Shown here: one piece after another, positions 2,633 to 61,250 of the stretch
Numbering within the stretch: the stretch's first letter is position 1
Layout of the letters: each line of letters opens with the position of its first letter
Source of the DNA: Patescibacteria group bacterium
Lineage (GTDB): Bacteria > Patescibacteriota > Minisyncoccia > 2-02-FULL-40-12 > GWA2-44-9
DNA length: 64,000 nucleotides
Reading direction: 5' to 3'
NCBI GenBank assembly: GCA_038064515.1
Contig: JBBTSY010000004.1
Coordinates: 32,585 to 96,584 of the forward strand
The notes under the pieces: model-generated
Seen by the model: the letters and a program-made list of their open reading frames with translations, nothing else
Databases searched by the model: none
Told to the model about the DNA's origin: nothing
Made by a program: the position numbers and the translations under genes

Positions 2633-2827
2633 AGAATATGGCGAGTACTTATTTTAGTACCATCGACCTTTCCTCCTAATTGTATAAAACCTACAAAAAC
2701 AGTGCAAGAGGAGCGAAGGCGACGAGGTACTGCGGCCACCAGGCCGAATGTGCAAACGAGAAATGCACAGGCTTGTCGGCCGGCCCGCTTCACCAGAGCT
2801 TCAGTAAGGCGAGTAGTCAGGTATGGC

Positions 2828-3405: not shown

Positions 3406-3479
3406 TGCGGGATCGTCTAATGGTAGGACATCGCCCTTTGAAGGCGAGTATCTTGGTCCGAATCCAAGTCCCGCAGCCA
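3406..3479 (+). tRNA. tRNA-Gln (anticodon UUG)
   Basis: Cloverleaf by hand. The acceptor stem TGCGGGA/TCCCGCA closes, followed by discriminator G and an encoded CCA. D-arm gtct/ggac. Anticodon stem tcgcc/ggcga with loop cTTTGaa. T-arm cttgg/ccaag with a tccgaat loop (C rather than U at position 55). Confidence 0.75.
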
Positions 3480-3551
3480 AGGTAGGAAGTATCGAGGTGA
3501 CCAAGGTGCCTCGGTTGGCTGCTACCCGCAGCTCTGCCGACAAATTATAAA

Positions 3552-4154
3552 ATGAGGTATCAATTTTTATCTGTAGATCTACAAAATGACTTTGCTTCTG
3601 AAGGTGGCAGTCATTATAAAATCCGACCTTCTATAAACTTCGATAAAGAAGTTCTGTTTCCGTTTCTAAAAGAAAAGGATATTAAAGTCAGCGAGATAAT
3701 TTCCGATTATCGACAACCAAGACCAGGAGATAGGGATGAGAGTTGTGTGCCTGGCACTTGGGGTTATGAATCCATCGTCCCAAAAGAGGTTGTAAAGTCT
3801 CAATGGGTAAAATGCATGAACTCACCGATTTGGACTAGAGACAATATAGGCGATCCAAACAAAATTGCTGGCTTGCCTTACCAAGATACAAAAGGATTTG
3901 GAGAATGGCTGGAAGAGAATATTGGTAAACCAGAAGAAGTAACACCTGTATTATTCGGTCTTACTATTGATTGTTGCGTACTAAGCACCCTTCAGGAGCT
4001 TAGCTGGCGGGGTTATTATCCCTTGGTCTTGAAAGAAGCCGTGGATCATTATCGAGGTACCGAAGAAGCCAAAGAAGCTGTCTTAAAAACACCTATCAAT
4101 AACTGGGCGGATGCAATCACTTGGGACGAACTGAAAGATAAATTGAATGGATAA
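3552..4154 (+). CDS. Isochorismatase-family cysteine hydrolase, paralog A
   Basis: FLSVDLQNDF N-terminal motif and the catalytic-Cys motif GLTIDCCVLST. 200 aa. About 85% aa identical to the ORF at 6623-7225. Confidence 0.75.
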   Translation: MRYQFLSVDLQNDFASEGGSHYKIRPSINFDKEVLFPFLKEKDIKVSEIISDYRQPRPGDRDESCVPGTWGYESIVPKEVVKSQWVKCMNSPIWTRDNIGDPNKIAGLPYQDTKGFGEWLEENIGKPEEVTPVLFGLTIDCCVLSTLQELSWRGYYPLVLKEAVDHYRGTEEAKEAVLKTPINNWADAITWDELKDKLNG

Positions 4155-6595: not shown

Positions 6596-6622
6596 TAGTG
6601 GGCAAGACGAAACAATAATTGT

Positions 6623-7225
6623 ATGAACTACCAATTTCTTTCAGTAGACCTACAAAATGATTTTGCTACTGAAGATGGTAAGCATTATAAAGTCCGACCC
6701 TCAATAAACTTTGATAAAGAAGTTCTTTTTCCGTTCCTCAAAGAAAAAAATATTAAGATTGGCGAGATAATTTCTGATTATCGCCAGCCTAGACCAGGAG
6801 ATAAAGATGAAAGTTGTGTCCCCGGAACATGGGGTTATGAATCAATCGTTCCGGAAGAGATTGTTAAATCTCAATGGATCAAATGCATGAATTCGCCGAT
6901 TTGGGTACGAGAAAATATCGGTGACCCAAATAAAACGGCAGGGTTGCCATATCAAGATACTAAAGCATTTGGGGAATGGCTGGATAAGAATTTAGGCAAA
7001 CCCGAAGAAATTACCCCAGTCCTTTTCGGCCTCACCATTGATTGCTGTGTGTTAAGCACACTCCAGGAGCTTAATTGGCGAGGATACTACCCGCTTGTAC
7101 TCAAAGAAGCAGTCGACCATTATCAGGGCACGGAAGAAGATAAGGAAGCAGTTTTGAAGACACCCGTTAATAATTGGGCGGAGGTAGTTGTTTGGGAAAA
7201 ATTGAAAAGTAAAATAAGGCAATAG
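6623..7225 (+). CDS. Isochorismatase-family cysteine hydrolase, paralog B
   Basis: Same motifs as paralog A. The DNA is about 80% identical with mostly synonymous differences, so both copies are intact and under selection. Confidence 0.75.
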   Translation: MNYQFLSVDLQNDFATEDGKHYKVRPSINFDKEVLFPFLKEKNIKIGEIISDYRQPRPGDKDESCVPGTWGYESIVPEEIVKSQWIKCMNSPIWVRENIGDPNKTAGLPYQDTKAFGEWLDKNLGKPEEITPVLFGLTIDCCVLSTLQELNWRGYYPLVLKEAVDHYQGTEEDKEAVLKTPVNNWAEVVVWEKLKSKIRQ

Positions 7226-10368: not shown

Positions 10369-10722
10369 CTATTCGTAGCGCAGGGCACGGATCGGATCGA
10401 GGCGGCTGGCTTTGAGAGATGGGAGCGCGCCGGCAATAAGTGCCAACGCGATGCCACCAGCAAGGATGCCCAGGAACGGCAAGATAGGAAAGGCGAGCAG
10501 TTGAAAGCCGACGAAGTCTTTCAGGAAGGTGTTCGTGGCAACACGATTACCTATCAAGCCAATGATGATACTAGAACCAATGCCGAGAGCTGAACCCCAG
10601 AAGCCGATACTCGCCGCTTCCAGAGAAAAAATAGTAAAAATCGTGCGGCGGTTGGCGCCGAGCGCTTTCATGAGTCCGATCTCCGAAGTTCGTTCGTTAA
10701 CTGCGTTTCTACTCATTGTCAA
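10369..10722 (-). pseudogene. C-terminal remnant (TM3-TM4) of an FtsX/MacB-type ABC-transporter permease
   Basis: Carries RTSEIGLMKALGA and the C-terminal ASRLDPIRALRYE FtsX-domain motifs. Only 117 aa remain. There is no room upstream for TM1, the extracytoplasmic domain or TM2, because the M23 gene starts 39 nt away on the other strand. Confidence 0.6.
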
Positions 10723-21314: not shown

Positions 21315-21916
21315 CTCCTGAATACAAGCAACCTAAAACCTACAAAGTTGAAGATGAGGGCCACGGCGGAACCGGCGATGGCGGAAATGTTCGCCCATCG
21401 AACTGCTGAAAGCCCGAAATTATCCGTGCCCAATCTAAGAACAGCGGTAAATACGATTGTATTAATTACAAGACTCAACAGGTTTATGGTAAAGAACTTT
21501 CCAATCTCGGATGCCCCGGTCCTACCATTAGTTTGAAAAACCCATGTCTTATTCCAGAAGTAGCTATGCGTTGACGCCACTAAAAATGCCGCCGCCTTAA
21601 AGAACGATAATGTTGTGCCTCCGGTAATGCTGGAAATGGAGATGAGCAGATTCAAGGTACCAAAGTCGACAACGGCATTTGTAAAACCGATAGTTGCGAA
21701 TTTACCAAATTGATTAAAGAATGCCAGCCAGCGGCCCAGAAAATATCCGAACTGGACTCCAATCATCCATAAAACGGGAATAAATACCACAAGGCTTACC
21801 CAGGGAATACCGAACAGCGGCTCAATCTTTAAAAATAGCAAGATTTGCCACGCGATAAAACCGGCTGTTAATCCGGTAATAAGCGCGGAGATAATATCTT
21901 TACGTGTTATGGTCAT
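21311..21916 (-). CDS. GtrA-family membrane protein (polyprenyl-phosphate-sugar translocation family)
   Basis: 4 TM helices, KF..VG.N..D core and the FNFVGFRLLVFRR C-terminus. Confidence 0.65.
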   Translation of the reverse strand: MTITRKDIISALITGLTAGFIAWQILLFLKIEPLFGIPWVSLVVFIPVLWMIGVQFGYFLGRWLAFFNQFGKFATIGFTNAVVDFGTLNLLISISSITGGTTLSFFKAAAFLVASTHSYFWNKTWVFQTNGRTGASEIGKFFTINLLSLVINTIVFTAVLRLGTDNFGLSAVRWANISAIAGSAVALIFNFVGFRLLVFRR

Positions 21917-24375
21917 GAAATTACAGAAACCGCAGGCTGCTGATAGCTCGATCGGATCGCATTCTCGACATCGGCTCTCGGTTGGCCGTACTTTCTTTCG
22001 GAAAGCATTTTAAGAGCCCTCGCAATCGCAGGATGCGGCGGCTTTTCTTGAATCGTTTTAATGTTGAATGGCTGGCTTGTTTGGTTCTGTATCAACAGTT
22101 TAACATGAGCTTGAAAATTATCTATGTTGAGAAGATCCTGAACGCTGAATACGGGCTCAAACTGATTTTTCAAAAACTCCGCGTCATCGGCTCCCACTCT
22201 GAATGCCACCATGGAACCGACATTTCCAAACACCGCATTCTTGATTTCATCGCGCAACTGCTTGATGTACTGATGCGCGATCACGAGATTAAGGCGATAC
22301 TTGCGGGCTTCTGAAAGAATCGTGGCGATACTTTCCGTCGTAACGGTTTGAAACTCATCAATATATAAGTAAAAATCCTTGCGCAAGTTTTCTTCCACAT
22401 CTACGCGTGATAATGCCGCCATGAGTAACTTACCCACAACCACCATTCCCAACAGGTACGCGTTAATTTCGCCGATCTGACCTTTGGAAAGGTTTACGAT
22501 AAGAATCTTTTGTTCATCAATGAGATCTCGGAAATTGAACGCGCTACGAGGCTGGGCGATGATCGGCCGCAAGTAATCATTCGCCAAAAACGGATTAAGT
22601 TTTGAAGTGACATACGGAGCCATATTGGCCAGTGCCGCGTCGCCCCCGGCCTTTTCCGCTTCCTGCTCCCAAAAATTCTTTACGAGCGGATTTGTTTCTT
22701 GCGCTAAAAGTGCTTTGCGGTATCCGGCATCAGTCAGCACGCGCGGTATTGCGGCGAGCGTCGGCATAAAGTGAGCAATACCAGTATGAACGGACCCATT
22801 CTCTTCGAACTTCCGCTGATAAATATCCAAAAGAAGCAAAATGCTATTTTTGAAATACTGTTCGAACATCGGTCCGAAAGCTTCCGGAACGCCTTCATAG
22901 AGCGATTTCACGATCGCGAGAACCTCATTGGCAACAAATGTTTTTTGTTCGGGTTTCGTCGGGTCGAACTCCAGCATGTTCAAGCCGAGCGGGAATTCAG
23001 TGCTTCCGGGATTAAAATACACGATGTCATCGGCACGTTCTTTGGGTACCATCGAAAGGACATATTCGGCAAGTTCGCCATGCGGATCGATGATACAGAC
23101 ACCTTTGCCGTTATTAATATCCTGGACGATCATGTTTTTTATCAGCGAAGATTTACCGGTGCCCGTCTGTCCCACAACATACATATGCCGGCGGCGGTCA
23201 TCATCGCCTACACGGACCATTTTTTCATCACCGCGAAAATTACTCGTACCAATCACCACGCCGGAGTCAGGCAGGTTCAACGGCGGCTCTGCGACTTTTG
23301 CCTTGAGCATTTTGATCTTGGGCGCTTGCGTGGTCGGCAGAGGGAAATGATAGATACTCGTCAACTCTTCACTCGAAAGAAATATCGTCTGCTCATTATC
23401 AAATATGCGGAAAGAGAAATTAAGGACTAAGTCTTCGAGGGCTTTCTTCCGAAGCTTCACAAGCTCCAAGCTATTGCGCTCGGGAGCTCCGAATTGCACG
23501 AATGCTCCGCCGGCATCATTGAGAATCTGCTCGGCACGAGGCTGATTATCGGCGGAGGCCAGAATGCGGATATTAACATCGTAAAGCGACCGCGAGGCCT
23601 TACTCTGAAGCGCCTCAACTATCTTGGCCTCAAATGGCGTCATGGTCTTCTGGGTTTCAACGTTCACATCGGATTTTTTCTTCTTTCCCTGCTTTGCTAG
23701 TATAAGCGCTTTATTAAAATCGTTCCCGGCTTGCATTTCATGAGCGACTTTTTGGGAAAGCGCGCGGATATTTTCCCGATGCGATGGCCGGATAAGAATT
23801 TGGATAGCCGCCCCCTCGCCTTCACGCTGTAATTTAGAAAGGGTGTTTATGACACCGCCCAACGGATCAGATTCGAGATCGTTGTACGTACGCAACGACA
23901 GAATGGGGCTAGCTTTCTGTTTAAGATATGTTCCCGCCACAACGCCTTGAGGATTAAAGATATTGTAGTCCTTCACGCGCAACACTTCGGCTACAGGATA
24001 TAGGCCGTGAACTTGCTGTTGAAAAGTCTGCTCATAACTCCGGGGAACGGCAATATAAAAGTGGATTTCCTCACCGATATGATGCACCGCCATCTCAAGG
24101 GCGAGGTACGGCTCACCGTAGGCAAATTTATTCCAACCGGTGGCGTGGATGCCGGTAAAGGAAGCGTACAGCTGTTCCATTACCGCGATTAGCTCCTTTT
24201 CAGGCTTTGGATTCGACTCGGAATCCTGGCCGCGAGGCAATGTAATCAGAAAGAGCGACATATTGAGCGCGCGGGCTACGGCCCCTTTGGAACGCACCGC
24301 TCCCAGAATAATAAGAACTGCCGAGCTCAAGATCAGCAGAACAAGCGCATAGGTTATAAGAAGAATGGGAGACAC
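21913..24375 (-). CDS. VirD4/TraG/TraD-type coupling-protein-like P-loop ATPase (FtsK/HerA superfamily) with an N-terminal TM helix and a roughly 400 aa uncharacterised domain
   Basis: MYVVGQTGTGKSS Walker A, IIDPHGE, LYIDEFQ Walker B and RKYRLNLVIAHQYIKQL (the R..G..l..Q...QL pattern of type IV coupling proteins). 820 aa. Confidence 0.55.
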   Translation of the reverse strand: MSPILLITYALVLLILSSAVLIILGAVRSKGAVARALNMSLFLITLPRGQDSESNPKPEKELIAVMEQLYASFTGIHATGWNKFAYGEPYLALEMAVHHIGEEIHFYIAVPRSYEQTFQQQVHGLYPVAEVLRVKDYNIFNPQGVVAGTYLKQKASPILSLRTYNDLESDPLGGVINTLSKLQREGEGAAIQILIRPSHRENIRALSQKVAHEMQAGNDFNKALILAKQGKKKKSDVNVETQKTMTPFEAKIVEALQSKASRSLYDVNIRILASADNQPRAEQILNDAGGAFVQFGAPERNSLELVKLRKKALEDLVLNFSFRIFDNEQTIFLSSEELTSIYHFPLPTTQAPKIKMLKAKVAEPPLNLPDSGVVIGTSNFRGDEKMVRVGDDDRRRHMYVVGQTGTGKSSLIKNMIVQDINNGKGVCIIDPHGELAEYVLSMVPKERADDIVYFNPGSTEFPLGLNMLEFDPTKPEQKTFVANEVLAIVKSLYEGVPEAFGPMFEQYFKNSILLLLDIYQRKFEENGSVHTGIAHFMPTLAAIPRVLTDAGYRKALLAQETNPLVKNFWEQEAEKAGGDAALANMAPYVTSKLNPFLANDYLRPIIAQPRSAFNFRDLIDEQKILIVNLSKGQIGEINAYLLGMVVVGKLLMAALSRVDVEENLRKDFYLYIDEFQTVTTESIATILSEARKYRLNLVIAHQYIKQLRDEIKNAVFGNVGSMVAFRVGADDAEFLKNQFEPVFSVQDLLNIDNFQAHVKLLIQNQTSQPFNIKTIQEKPPHPAIARALKMLSERKYGQPRADVENAIRSSYQQPAVSVIS

Positions 24376-40863: not shown

Positions 40864-41742
40864 TTATTGATTAAGGAGAAAGGTCTCCAAAGCGAGACGA
40901 TGATTGTATTGCGGTTGAGAAATAATATGTTTAAGTCTCAAAAGTCCCTTGATGGCACGATGCGCTTTTTCGTCATCGCGCAGATGCGCATGAGCCCATC
41001 GTAACCAGTAGTCTACGGCGTGAGCATATTCCTCTTTCTCGTAGAGTTTCTTGGCATATTGAAGCCGCTCCGCCACACCCTGGCTTGATACTTTTCGAAA
41101 ATCACGAATTGCCGTTCGAACATCATCAATTGATCCCGATTCGATCGTACGGATAGCCCAACCCAGCCTTCCATTTGCAATTTCAGTAACCAGCGCGCTC
41201 GTTTCATTATCTGCTTTCTTTGAGGCGAGCATTTTTTTAATAACCTCATCAGTATGCGGTAAAAATGGAACTTCCTGACATCGAGAAGTAATCGTAGGAA
41301 GCAGCTGTTTGGGCTGTGAGCTAATTAGAAGTAACGTGGAATAAGGCGGGGGTTCCTCTAAAACTTTCAACAGCGCATTAGATGCTTCAATCGTCAGGCG
41401 ATCGGCATCGTCAATAATCACGAACTTATAGGGGCCCGCCAGCGGTTTTCGAGATATAAAAAGATTCACTTCTCGAATATCGTCGATGTAAATTTTCGAC
41501 TCACCCTCATTCACTCGCGGCCCGATTACCAGCCGGTCTGCATCAAGTACCGATGCGGAATCAGGATTGGCTAAACGACAGAGTTCTTGGGCGAATTTTC
41601 TCTTGCCGATCATTTCCGGACCGGAGAAAAGATATGCGTGGAGAAACCGATCTTTTTTAAGAAGATTTTCGAAGTAGCTCTTTTGAAATTCGAATCCGAT
41701 CGTGTGCCAATCCATAGAACCCATCTCAATAATACTTTTCAT
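40864..41742 (-). CDS. holB: DNA polymerase III delta-prime subunit
   Basis: HAYLFSGPEMIGK and the SRCQ sensor. The first 9 codons (MKSIIEMGS) lie inside the MITE-like element. An alternative start is MDWH at 41713-41715. Confidence 0.7.
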   Translation of the reverse strand: MKSIIEMGSMDWHTIGFEFQKSYFENLLKKDRFLHAYLFSGPEMIGKRKFAQELCRLANPDSASVLDADRLVIGPRVNEGESKIYIDDIREVNLFISRKPLAGPYKFVIIDDADRLTIEASNALLKVLEEPPPYSTLLLISSQPKQLLPTITSRCQEVPFLPHTDEVIKKMLASKKADNETSALVTEIANGRLGWAIRTIESGSIDDVRTAIRDFRKVSSQGVAERLQYAKKLYEKEEYAHAVDYWLRWAHAHLRDDEKAHRAIKGLLRLKHIISQPQYNHRLALETFLLNQ

Positions 41743-41922
41743 GCCGAAATTTCAGGATTATGAGCGAAAAGAGTGAAGAGTGAGGAAGCAGAGTGGTACT
41801 CTGCTGACGAGATCTGATCTCTTTGCAGCCAGAATCCTGAAATACATTCAAGCTACTACCTGCAGTATTTCGTCGCCTTCGCTCCTCAATTGCAGGCGAA
41901 AGGGTGTTATTGAGATGGGTTC
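41716..41922. mobile_element. MITE-like palindromic element, copy 1 (207 bp), with 16 bp perfect TIRs AGAACCCATCTCAATAA / TTATTGAGATGGGTTC
   Basis: Near-identical to 60015-60174 except for a 47 bp internal insertion. It also carries nested internal inverted repeats (tttcaggatt/aatcctgaaa). Confidence 0.75.
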
Positions 41923-41928
41923 CACATA

Positions 41929-43062
41929 TTAATAAATACCAGAAAGCACGCGAGAAGCAATAGCATCAGCGGCACCTGGGGTAGCGAAGGTTTTAACTTT
42001 CTGACTTACATCGAGATACCGGGCTGGTTCAAGCAATGATTGGATTTGATTGATGAGAATGTGTGTCGTAATATTAGCTCCTTCCAAAATTGCCAAGCCT
42101 GCTTTGGCGAATTCGATGGCATTGGTTATTTGTTCACCGCGACTGGCTTGCTGTAGCGGAATAATAATGGCAGGCTTCCCTACTTGAGCAATTTCGAAAA
42201 GCGACGCCGCGCCAGACCGAGAAATTATAATATCGCAGGCGGCATAGGCCATTGCCATTTCTTTCACGTTCAAAAACGGATACAATCGATACCGCGATTC
42301 AATAAGGGAACCGTAACTCTCTTTCCCCTCCTTGATAAACGTATCAACAATTGCCCGAACACTCTCATATTGAGAATCGCCGCATTGATGGATAATCTGA
42401 TAATCTTTTACGAGCTCAACAAGTGAGTTTGCGATAATATCATTGATTACTTTTGCCCCTTGGCTGCCGCCGAGAATCAAAAGTGTTTTCGTATTCCCGG
42501 AAAAATTAAATGATTCGAGCGCGGCGCTGCGATCAGCGCCGAATAGATCCATTCGCACCGGATTCCCCACCAGCATCGCTTTCCCCGGAAAATATTTCTC
42601 GGCGGATTTAAAACTTATAAAAACAATGTTTACAAAGCGGGTGACGATCCGGTTTGCCAAGCCAGGGATGGAATCAGACTCATGCAGATATACGGGAATA
42701 AAAAATAATTTTGCGACTAATACGAGAGCTACTGAATCATAACCGCCTTTTGAGAAAACCACATCTGGCATAAACCAAAATAGATACCAAAGTGCCTGAA
42801 TAAAACCAATAGGTATTTTAATCAAATCTAGAAATAGCAATGGACTGGCATATCGTCGGAGTCCGCCAGCTATAATATGCTTAAATGCGAATCCGCCTTC
42901 TTGAGCTGCACGCTCAAGAAAACCGCGATTCGCACCAATAAGGAGTAGACGTACGTTAATATTTTTTTGTTGAGCGTGAGCTTGAAGAGATTTTGCCACA
43001 GCCAAGAGCGGGTAAACATGTCCTCCGCTAGCGCCACCAATAAGAAGTATTCGCTTTTCCAT
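41929..43062 (-). CDS. murG: UDP-GlcNAc:lipid I GlcNAc transferase
   Basis: GGTGGH N-terminal motif and the GT28 C-terminal domain. Confidence 0.85.
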   Translation of the reverse strand: MEKRILLIGGASGGHVYPLLAVAKSLQAHAQQKNINVRLLLIGANRGFLERAAQEGGFAFKHIIAGGLRRYASPLLFLDLIKIPIGFIQALWYLFWFMPDVVFSKGGYDSVALVLVAKLFFIPVYLHESDSIPGLANRIVTRFVNIVFISFKSAEKYFPGKAMLVGNPVRMDLFGADRSAALESFNFSGNTKTLLILGGSQGAKVINDIIANSLVELVKDYQIIHQCGDSQYESVRAIVDTFIKEGKESYGSLIESRYRLYPFLNVKEMAMAYAACDIIISRSGAASLFEIAQVGKPAIIIPLQQASRGEQITNAIEFAKAGLAILEGANITTHILINQIQSLLEPARYLDVSQKVKTFATPGAADAIASRVLSGIY

Positions 43063-59698: not shown

Positions 59699-59962
59699 AT
59701 GCCGAATACAAAATCAGCCATTAAGGCACTGCGACAATCAAGAAAACGACGAGTCAAAAATCTCGGCAAAAAAGACGCTTATAAGTCGGCCGTAAAGGAG
59801 TTTAAGAAATTACTTATTGCCGGCAAATTTGATGAAGCGAAACAGCTCTTGCCAAAGGTCTATCAAAAACTCGACAAAGCAACTAAGGCTAATGTTATCA
59901 AAAAGAACAAGGCCAGCCGCTTGAAATCAAAAGCCTCTAAAATGCTTGCCCGTCCAAAATAA
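59699..59962 (+). CDS. rpsT: 30S ribosomal protein S20
   Basis: MPNTKSAIKALRQS... The ORF track starts earlier, at 59627, but the S20 N-terminus begins at 59699. Confidence 0.85.
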   Translation: MPNTKSAIKALRQSRKRRVKNLGKKDAYKSAVKEFKKLLIAGKFDEAKQLLPKVYQKLDKATKANVIKKNKASRLKSKASKMLARPK

Positions 59963-59988
59963 ATGATATAGCTAGCAGTGAAATACAT

Positions 59989-60013
59989 AAAACCCCGCAA
60001 TCGGCGGGGTTTT
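59989..60013 (+). terminator. rpsT terminator
   Basis: aaaaCCCCGC-aatcg-GCGGGGtttt. Confidence 0.75.
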
Positions 60014-60014
60014 A

Positions 60015-60174
60015 AGAACCCATCTCAATAATGCTTTTCATGCCGAAATTTCAGGATTATGAGCGAAAAGAGTGAAGAGTGAGGAAGCAGAGTGGTACTC
60101 TGCTGACGAGATCTGATCTCTTTGCAGCCAGAATCCTGAAATTGCAGGCGAAAGGGTGTTATTGAGATGGGTTC
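60015..60174. mobile_element. MITE-like palindromic element, copy 2 (160 bp), with 17 bp TIRs
   Basis: About 99% identical to copy 1 apart from the 47 bp indel. Its right TIR overlaps the ftsW stop codon. Confidence 0.75.
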
Positions 60175-61250
60175 TAAGTATGCTTGGATATGTTCAATAT
60201 AATACCGATACCGCTCAAGAGCGCGAGCGTTGCGGTACCGCCATAGCTCACAAAAGGAAGCGGTAGACCGGTAAGAGGCCCCAGGCCGGTTACTGCGGCA
60301 ATATTAATAAACACTTGCACCACGATCCAAGTAGCGATTCCCATCACATAAAGCTTAGCGAATTTATCAGGCGCTTTTTTCGCAATCTGCGCCATGAAGA
60401 AAGCAAGTAATAAAAATAGGGATATAAGGACACCTGCCCCGATTAATCCTAATTCCTCCACAATTACGGCGAATATCGAATCTCCCACTGCTTCAGGCAG
60501 AAAACCGAACTTTTGAGTGCTCTTCCCGAAGCCGACGCCAAAAACTCCACCAGAACCGATCGCAATTAGGGACTGATTGAGTTGGTAAGAAATGCCTCGC
60601 GGGTCAAAAGAAGGATTCAAAAAAGTCTTCACGCGATTCAGTCGATAGGGCGCTAAGAAAATCAGTCCCCCACCGATGAGCAAACCGATAAGGATCATGA
60701 TAGCAAAGTCTTTCCAGCGCACTCCAGCCACCAGGTAAACTCCCAGCGCTATCGCGACAACAATAATAAGCGTTCCCAAATCCGGCTGGAGCATCAGTAA
60801 TAAGCCAATAAATCCAACTACCAGAAAGAATGGAATGATTCCATATGTCCAATTTTTTATCCTATCATTGCGCCCCCCAAACCAGGCGGCAAAATAAATG
60901 ACAAGGGCCAGTTTAATAAATTCCGCGGGCTGAAACGTTTGTCCGAAAACTTTGATCCAGCTCTGCGCATTATTGATTTTCAATCCCACTCCCGGAACAA
61001 ACACAAGAATCATGAAAGCCAAGGCTCCAAAGAGAATTGGCAAAGAAAATTTACGCCAATATTTATAGTCAATTTTTGACAAAATTACCATCACGAGGAG
61101 ACCGGGCACTACCGCAAATAAGAACTGGTGTTTTACGAAAAAATATGCGGAACCGAATTGCTTTCCCCCCTCGATAATCCCCGCTGAAGATAGCGCGACG
61201 AGCCCAAACGCTATCAGTGTAATGGTCGTCCAGAGTAGCTTCTTATCCAT
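60174..61250 (-). CDS. ftsW: SEDS-family peptidoglycan glycosyltransferase FtsW/RodA
   Basis: 10 TM SEDS pattern. It sits adjacent to mraY. Confidence 0.85.
   Translation of the reverse strand: MDKKLLWTTITLIAFGLVALSSAGIIEGGKQFGSAYFFVKHQFLFAVVPGLLVMVILSKIDYKYWRKFSLPILFGALAFMILVFVPGVGLKINNAQSWIKVFGQTFQPAEFIKLALVIYFAAWFGGRNDRIKNWTYGIIPFFLVVGFIGLLLMLQPDLGTLIIVVAIALGVYLVAGVRWKDFAIMILIGLLIGGGLIFLAPYRLNRVKTFLNPSFDPRGISYQLNQSLIAIGSGGVFGVGFGKSTQKFGFLPEAVGDSIFAVIVEELGLIGAGVLISLFLLLAFFMAQIAKKAPDKFAKLYVMGIATWIVVQVFINIAAVTGLGPLTGLPLPFVSYGGTATLALLSGIGIILNISKHT

Follow-up and report, generated by a model that had tools for sequence, protein, structure and literature searches.

A MITE-like palindromic repeat, probably mobile, between murG and holB in a groundwater Patescibacteria genome

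A 64,000-nucleotide stretch of contig JBBTSY010000004.1 (Patescibacteria group bacterium, assembly GCA_038064515.1; the whole stretch is called the window below) carries a palindromic element directly at the start of holB, the gene for the delta′ subunit of DNA polymerase III. This feature is probably a copy of a non-autonomous mobile palindromic repeat resembling MITEs (miniature transposable elements with inverted repeats), residing in a groundwater Patescibacteria (Yanofskybacteria/Paceibacterota-like) genome. The family to which it belongs is previously undescribed, and its hairpin shape is conserved as well as its ends. Empty orthologous sites and copies in unrelated contexts identify it as a dispersed, insertion-polymorphic, non-coding, MITE-like repeat bounded by terminal inverted repeats (TIRs). 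These two observations support the MITE-like mobile repeat that had been proposed in an earlier annotation of the window (the original prediction).

The window contains two copies of the element in the same orientation, copy 1 (207 bp) and copy 2 (161 bp), whose coordinates are listed in Table 1. They are 99% identical across 128 nt and 93% identical across the final 42 nt, and the differences are one internal single-nucleotide polymorphism (SNP), a changed base at the terminus, and an indel of 47 nt (41844–41890). The two near-identical copies of ~160–200 bp noted originally were thus recovered, with ~99% identity outside the 47-nt insert, and comparison of the ends bore out the description of copy 1 as a 207-bp element with perfect 16-bp TIRs. 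The terminal repeat GAACCCATCTCAATAA is perfect over 16 bp in copy 1 and over 17 bp in copy 2. Read outward on the minus strand, the left TIR of copy 1 is TATTAT-TGAG-ATGGGTTCT and adjoins the holB ATG. A 23-nt end pattern gave exactly four matches in the window, which are the four element ends (0.00 expected from 100 shuffles). The 16–17 bp TIRs were identical in seven copies from at least five contigs.

Both insertion sites were empty in the closest relative found, in which HolB is 93% identical and the nucleotides are 93% identical over ~28 kb. Its site 1 reads murG-TAG TATGT ATG-holB, with a 5-nt spacer (L012), and its site 2 reads ftsW ...ACA TAA AACCCCGCC(terminator)... rpsT, with a 52-nt spacer (L020). 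The BLAST blocks between the window and this relative break exactly at 41716/41924 and 60014/60169. A more distant relative (~70% nucleotide identity) had both sites empty as well. The original prediction had named the same sequence in the orthologous spacers of relatives as the observation that would speak against a mobile repeat, and these two relatives show the opposite. The copies in the window are ~99% alike as compared to 93% between the genomes, so that recent gain is the best reading of both insertions. The comparison shows that the element entered the murG|holB and ftsW|rpsT spacers after the split from the closest sampled relative.

An end-pattern search of public metagenome contigs yielded only short elements. 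The contigs L002–L006 have the element, and not the flanks, in common with the window. The copies in L003, L004, and L005 are 76–82% identical to those of the window. The L002 copy (275 bp) has the same ends around an unrelated, GC-rich interior, and the L006 copy is an internally deleted remnant of 69 bp. Across the family, the termini are invariant, and the interiors are ~20% diverged or, in L002, replaced outright. A further member was found in a distant relative (L023, 18915–19070) between greA and an aminoacyl-tRNA synthetase gene; in the window and in L012, the corresponding site is short and lacks the element. Searches with nhmmer and a covariance model (R1) over ~200 kb of sequence revealed no copies besides those described here. 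The same sequence is present in Hainich groundwater assemblies, and four contigs from independent assemblies (L008, L009, L011, and L014) terminate inside the element. One Hainich H51 contig of 2127 bp (L010) joins the 3′ end of ftsW to holB via a single 161-bp element. It has the right flank of copy 2 but, on its left, both the flank and the SNP allele of copy 1, has 2.3x coverage, and is most likely a repeat-induced assembly chimera.

We compared these features with the criteria for prokaryotic MITEs given in section 2.1 of PMC10969869. MITEs are shorter than 500 bp and have TIRs of ~4–30 bp and flanking direct repeats that fade with age; they lack a transposase gene, occur as dispersed polymorphic copies, depend on a cognate insertion sequence acting in trans, and yield a stem-loop transcript (PMC10969869). 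The present element measures 161 and 207 bp in the window and 69–275 bp elsewhere, which is too short for a transposase to be encoded. Dispersal and presence/absence polymorphism are documented by the two copies in the window, six further loci, and two empty sites in the 93% relative. A stable stem-loop transcript is predicted.

Copy 1 separates murG (3′ end) from holB (5′ end), two minus-strand genes, and copy 2 is flanked by the rpsT terminator and the ftsW 3′ end. The identity of all four genes was confirmed by Pfam, and the source names of homologues put the organism in Patescibacteria, near Ca. Yanofskybacteria/Paceibacterota. The conserved holB ATG (41713–41715) directly abuts copy 1. 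On the minus strand, the empty site 1 sequence TATG-TA-TGG became TATG-TG-[GAACCC...GGGTTC]-TA-TGG; the TA target shares its A with the holB start codon, which is restored after insertion. At site 2, the empty CATAC(A)TAAAACCCC became CATAC-TTA-[GAACCC...GGGTTC]-TTA-AAACCCC on the same strand. The ftsW stop codon changed from TAA to TAG, built partly of element bases, and the end of the FtsW protein is unaltered. This comparison shows that both insertions occurred at T/A-rich sites overlapping a start or stop codon and that both codons were regenerated. Four of the eight copies lie within 0–6 nt of a start codon, namely those at holB, the L002 gene, the L003 open reading frame (ORF), and the L023 synthetase gene.

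In seven copies, TA was found on 8 of the 14 flanks. Perfect flank duplications were observed only in copy 2 (TTA/TTA, i.e. TAA/TAA), L002, and L005 (both TA/TA); copy 1 is flanked by TG/TA, and the signal is on one side only in L003, L004, and L006. Three models were tried, i.e. a fixed 2-bp TA duplication, a fixed 3-bp TNA duplication, and no duplication with 17-bp ends, and each failed for some copy. Since no single duplication length fits all copies, a preference for TA or T/A-rich targets is clear and a duplication is not. The search for further copies and target-site duplications suggested by the original prediction had a divided outcome: related copies exist elsewhere (L002–L006 and L023), and the duplication is not clean, being ambiguous between TA and TTA.

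Two side observations concern such junctions. In L004, a 137-residue ORF on the minus strand (1813–2226) enters the element, and its last codons and stop (…QNPSQ*) come from the terminal repeat; the insertion probably replaced the original 3′ end of the gene. In L013 (11080–12152), a relative with an 87% identical FtsW, two additional genes, a 209-residue ORF and FolB, lie between ftsW and rpsT, which marks this junction as a recurrent rearrangement site.

Both copies are predicted to fold into one long hairpin, with energies of −85.2 kcal/mol for copy 1 (z = −7.35) and −83.4 kcal/mol for copy 2 (z = −11.35); no shuffled sequence folded as well. The nested internal inverted repeats noticed originally are present and proved to be the helices of this single hairpin. 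Covariation was evaluated in a structure-blind MAFFT alignment of five copies, in which 94.5% of the cells are paired. Compensatory double changes were observed at 18 of the 65 predicted pairs, as compared with 8.2 ± 1.9 in column shuffles (0 of 500 as high) and 0–2 for shifted partners. Addition of L023 raised this to 35 of 59 pairs in an alignment fitted to the model, which is biased towards structure. One-sided changes give G-U pairs on the plus strand of the window at eight positions and A-C solely at the terminal flank pair. In each of the seven full-length copies, this strand has the more favourable fold of the two, the differences being 5.4, 17.2, 18.1, 10.2, 12.9, 20.2, and 6.7 kcal/mol. 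The six copies that share this interior have two invariant asymmetric internal loops, in which a 5′-side GA faces a 3′-side GCA, and invariant GA dinucleotides in the purine-rich apical loops.

Two explanations can account for this pattern: selection acts on the single strand in its folded form, as RNA or as DNA in transposition, or each arm homogenises the other with certain fixed asymmetries retained. The orientation of the copies relative to the neighbouring genes is mixed, and a simple role in the mRNA in cis therefore does not explain the strand preference. A more specific proposal is that the interior is a selected irregular hairpin module of ~40 bp, with the GA/GCA loops and purine-rich apical loops, that folds well on just one of the two strands, as RNA or single-stranded DNA. 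It would have become joined to two or more unrelated sets of termini, GAACCCATCTCAATAA in the main family and GAGGTTARTGTATAYC in L023, and the whole would be a structured mobile element of streamlined Candidate Phyla Radiation (CPR) genomes whose ends serve as cassettes of a −10 box and a start codon for leaderless genes. We put this forward tentatively, as a possibility with the odds against it.

The 47-nt insert of copy 1 is found neither in copy 2 nor in any other family member, which indicates that it was derived in copy 1. The internal insertion of 47 bp described in the original prediction is real, and its proposed own hairpin was not supported: self-pairing is weak (−1.8 kcal/mol for the 44-nt core alone), and in the full fold the insert is mostly paired with the host arm. 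The 44-nt unit (ACATTC...TCGTCGCCTTCGCTCCTC) occurs twice in the window, at 41844–41887 with AAT on both flanks and, in a diverged form, upstream of a DUF378 gene (Table 1). The Logan contig L016 starts inside this unit. Possibly it is another repeat, of very small size, or a patch left by template switching.

To explain how such insertions could be tolerated, we considered the signals used for gene expression. Shine-Dalgarno motifs are nearly absent from the upstream regions of 44–52 genes in the window. A TATAAT-like hexamer (at least 5/6) occurs within 30 nt upstream of the ATG in 21 of 44 genes (~5 expected), with distances peaking at 6 nt and 8–13 nt; a TG frequently precedes the hexamer. 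This points to leaderless or short-leader mRNAs as the rule in the source genome. Read outward, the element end is ...AAAAGTATTATTGAGATGGGTTCT, and its TATTAT precedes the holB ATG by 13 nt and the element's own ATG by 4 nt. A conserved sigma-70-type promoter within the element was rejected as a candidate, the CATAAT box of the window not being kept in L003–L005. A promoter scanner gave one junction-spanning match, at chance frequency. A terminator role was likewise rejected, as no U-tract follows the hairpin.

A transposase acting in trans would recognise the conserved termini and move the element. Essential genes may tolerate the insertion because the adjacent ATG or stop codon is rebuilt. 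Each end would also offer an outward −10-like box (TATTAT) at the 4–13 nt spacing used by this genome of short leaders and few Shine-Dalgarno motifs, and the ATG of the element (ATG GGT TCT) would automatically be in frame when it abuts a start codon. Co-transcription would yield an RNA hairpin of ~60 base pairs. By analogy with Correia elements, the 24-bp terminal helix in a murG–holB co-transcript is a plausible substrate for RNase III. The covarying interior suggests that the folded single strand may itself be under selection. Effects of this type are known for MITEs, including promoters at the ends, RNase III cleavage at the TIRs, and in-frame fusions (PMC10969869, PMC2649163).

The ORF at 40864–41742 begins with MKSIIEMGS-MDWH, and the gene callers in six assemblies chose this extended holB start. 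Comparison with orthologues agreed with the original prediction that the element gives nine in-frame codons before the conserved MDWH. Among the HolB homologues aligned, the 11 closest have their start at the MDWH position or no more than two residues away from it; one of them (P0008) has an unrelated extension of its own. Most of the 120 matches listed are 278–284 residues long. MKSIIEMGS does not occur in the 93% relative, and it is in frame because the element end reads ATG-GGT-TCT, so that any abutting start codon is in frame. The same arm is in frame with a downstream OmdA-family ORF in L003 and out of frame with the neighbouring gene in L002. We infer from these sequences that MKSIIEMGS is an insertion by-product and not a conserved part of HolB.

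A mobilising enzyme and known homologues were also sought. Pfam and NCBIfam gave no transposase match among the window ORFs tested (most, not all, of them), in line with the statement in the original prediction that the window has no transposase, nor among the genes called at the syntenic loci of the relatives. No transposase was found next to the L006 copy, and none of the called genes of the window or the related loci examined encodes an HUH or RAYT protein. A match of the end pattern in an Olavius symbiont from a genome collection (L001, the same sequence as L007) was unpaired and was discarded as a chance hit. The viral collection contained neither the end pattern nor the interior pattern, and BLAST against plasmid and phage collections returned nothing. 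At the gathering threshold, Rfam detected tRNA-Gln alone in the window and nothing on the element; the best hit on the element in a permissive scan, sR2, reached 18.2 bits against a threshold of 42, which is noise. The read-through frame open across copy 2 had no real homologues among 1.84 billion representative proteins, with two weak matches (E ~1e-5). A 752-residue composite of six-frame peptides from three copies had no protein match at E <= 10.

Several points weigh against a MITE-like mobile repeat. A neutral MITE interior would not be expected to show strong covariation or to conserve G-U pairs and asymmetric loops. L023 has a homologous interior, but ~18 nt at each of its ends are wholly different and yet mutually complementary. 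L002 is its converse, with shared ends and a different interior that is likewise highly structured. (An extended palindrome in L023, from outer AGTTAT/ATAACT pairing, was dismissed, as a resident TATACT −10 box together with chance is more likely.) Two copies were seen in 74 kb of the source genome and none in ~42 kb of the closest relative. The flanks of copy 1 (TG/TA) and copy 2, which fits 3 bp (TTA) and not 2 bp, do not give a clean target-site duplication, and TA/TA occurs in just two of the five other copies with GAACCCATCTCAATAA-type ends. Exact 23-nt scans found no autonomous element or transposase with matching ends, in collections that do not include the source genome. The promoter, RNase III, and translation effects are deduced from sequence.

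The main mechanistic rival is a REPIN-like or HUH-type element, in which a single-stranded DNA hairpin is moved by a Y1/HUH transposase (RAYT or IS200/IS605-like) with no true target duplication. This mechanism would fit the better folding of one strand in all seven full-length copies (by 5–20 kcal/mol), where G-T/G-U occurs at eight pair positions and A-C at none inside the helix, and the preservation of the hairpin by compensatory changes. It would also fit a duplication that is absent or ambiguous (0–1 nt if the 17-bp ends are counted as element) and the inconsistent orientation towards neighbouring genes, which leaves a cis-RNA role not obviously orientation-bound. However, both termini are the same invariant, non-palindromic 16–17 bp in inverted order, which is a DDE-type layout, whereas REP units or IS200/IS605 ends are expected as subterminal small hairpins without TIRs. 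No conserved tetranucleotide stands beside the insertion points, and no HUH gene was seen in the window or the related loci examined. We consider this mechanism unlikely. Much the same holds for the view that the interior hairpin is a functional, strand-specific structured RNA in cis or trans (e.g. a protein-binding or processing module) carried as cargo by termini that are a mere vehicle, which we also judge improbable. The compensatory pairs (18 of 65, above all shuffles; 35 of 59 in the model-fitted alignment with L023), the loops and apical GA dinucleotides invariant in six copies, the strand asymmetry of the fold, and the homologous interior of L023 within unrelated termini speak for it. 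On the other side, the element has neither an Rfam match nor a conserved promoter or terminator of its own, L002 combines the same termini with an unrelated interior, and the copies occur in both orientations relative to flanking transcription. Moreover, the six sequences represent ~4–5 lineages, and arm-to-arm conversion in a palindrome could mimic covariation.

Two further readings are less likely still. A functional N-terminal extension of HolB, or a small protein, would agree with the in-frame MKSIIEMGS called as part of the gene in six assemblies, the in-frame arm at the OmdA-family ORF of L003, and the one frame open across copy 2. The extension is nevertheless missing from the other close homologues aligned, the 93% relative included, the L002 arm is out of frame with its neighbour, an ATG-GGT-TCT end next to a start codon is in frame in any case, and neither the search of 1.84 billion representatives nor the six-frame composite gave real homologues. 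A protein-coding role is thus very unlikely. An immobile cis-regulatory RNA or terminator resident at murG–holB and rpsT/ftsW, inherited vertically and duplicated once, would explain a stable hairpin with just two copies in the window. It would not explain why both orthologous sites are empty in two relatives, why homologous copies lie at unrelated loci, or why the hairpin has no U-tract and the native terminator is kept beside copy 2; this is the least credible of the alternatives. The MITE-like mobile repeat is the reading that we retain.

The element is not a sequence relative of any family compared; in its working, it is most like the Correia and ERIC-type palindromic repeats. Correia elements (CREE/NEMIS) of Neisseria are similarly 100–200 bp long, with long TIRs and TA insertion at intergenic sites beside genes; their ends can create outward promoters, and their transcript hairpin can be cut by RNase III at the TIRs (PMC2649163, PMC10969869), features that the present element would share by prediction. 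They differ in belonging to another phylum and in exceeding 100 copies per genome as compared to an apparently low copy number here, and the present interior shows covariation and strand asymmetry. Correia elements may be regarded as a functional analogue only. The ERIC/YPAL repeats of enterobacteria are imperfect palindromes of 127–170 bp in transcribed intergenic regions, with variants arising by internal insertions and RNA hairpins that affect mRNA stability (PMC10969869). Their sequence is unrelated, and ERIC has no demonstrated recent mobility, in contrast to the two insertions here after 7% genome divergence. Compensatory substitutions preserving the ERIC hairpin were reportedly described by Wilson and Sharp in 2006. 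The Rickettsia palindromic elements are palindromic repeats of ~150 bp in frame with host ORFs (PMC10969869). They lie inside genes and are translated as internal peptides, whereas the present element is intergenic and its extension is N-terminal and non-conserved. REPINs, which are mobilised by RAYT, are hairpin-forming and non-autonomous, with co-evolving arms, no clear target duplication, and plausibly strand-specific folding, all as here. They consist of two short REP palindromes without long invariant TIRs and require a RAYT gene. The present termini are not palindromic REP units, and no RAYT gene was seen in the window and related loci.

Literature text searches retrieved no report of MITEs in CPR/Patescibacteria. 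The element would represent active mobile DNA in a tiny, dense genome of this group, with recent transposition into spacers of 5 and 52 nt beside essential cell-wall and replication genes. It also affects public assemblies through the broken contigs (L008, L009, L011, and L014), the chimera (L010), and nine spurious HolB codons. The covariation-supported hairpin with its conserved loops is a candidate new structured RNA or DNA motif, and the outward −10-like boxes with the in-frame ATG offer a testable model for insertion tolerance in a leaderless or short-leader genome.

Table 1. Features of the element, its two insertion sites, and the neighbouring genes in the window.
Feature	Position	Strand	Remarks
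Element copy 1	41716..41922	+	207 bp; the strand that folds better ('fwd') is +; BLAST alignment to the relative is interrupted at 41716 and 41924
Copy 1, left TIR	41716..41732	+	AGAACCCATCTCAATAA
Copy 1, right TIR	41907..41922	-	16 bp perfect; 17th base C, not T
Copy 1-specific insertion, 47 nt	41844..41890	+	44-nt unit ACATTC...GCTCCTC plus duplicated AAT
Second copy of the 44-nt unit	2708..2751	-	75% identical; 18-nt perfect block; TTGC on both sides
Nine element-encoded in-frame codons (MKSIIEMGS) prefixed to holB	41716..41742	-	Not conserved in homologues
holB (DNA polymerase III delta′), from conserved start MDWH	40864..41715	-	Pfam PF13177; homologue alignment
murG	41929..43062	-	Stop codon 6 nt from right end of copy 1
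Element copy 2	60015..60175	+	161 bp; 17-bp TIRs
Lower conserved internal loop, 5′ side GA	60045..60046	+	Partner GCA 60144–60146
Upper conserved internal loop, 5′ side GA	60065..60066	+	Partner GCA 60124–60126
rpsT (ribosomal protein S20), upstream neighbour of copy 2	59702..59962	+	Pfam
Native bidirectional terminator hairpin, rpsT/ftsW	59988..60014	.	Also at the empty site of the relative
ftsW	60174..61250	-	TAG stop (60174–60176) combines the final two element bases with one base of the flank; TAA in the relative

Some further features of the window were recorded. An 81%-identical direct repeat (3543–3842 and 6614–6913) corresponds to paralogous genes for 200-residue proteins (3552–4154 and 6623–7225), both with a sub-threshold match to the Isochorismatase domain (~25–27 bits, cut-off 27). 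Just downstream of tRNA-Gln (3406–3479), the two paralogues enclose methyltransferase, GNAT, and short-chain dehydrogenase genes. The closest relative (L020 15041–16125 and 17345–20340; L021 12294–13666) carries a D-Ala-D-Ala ligase gene and a cassette of ~3 kb resembling a diversity-generating retroelement, with an RVT_1 reverse transcriptase and bAvd; the window has neither the ligase gene nor the cassette at the syntenic position (~54.7–56.1 kb). An 820-residue homologue of TraG/VirD4/TrwB-like coupling proteins (21913–24375) is located among housekeeping genes. A 117-residue ORF (10369–10722) matches the C-terminal part of FtsX only and may be a truncated gene.

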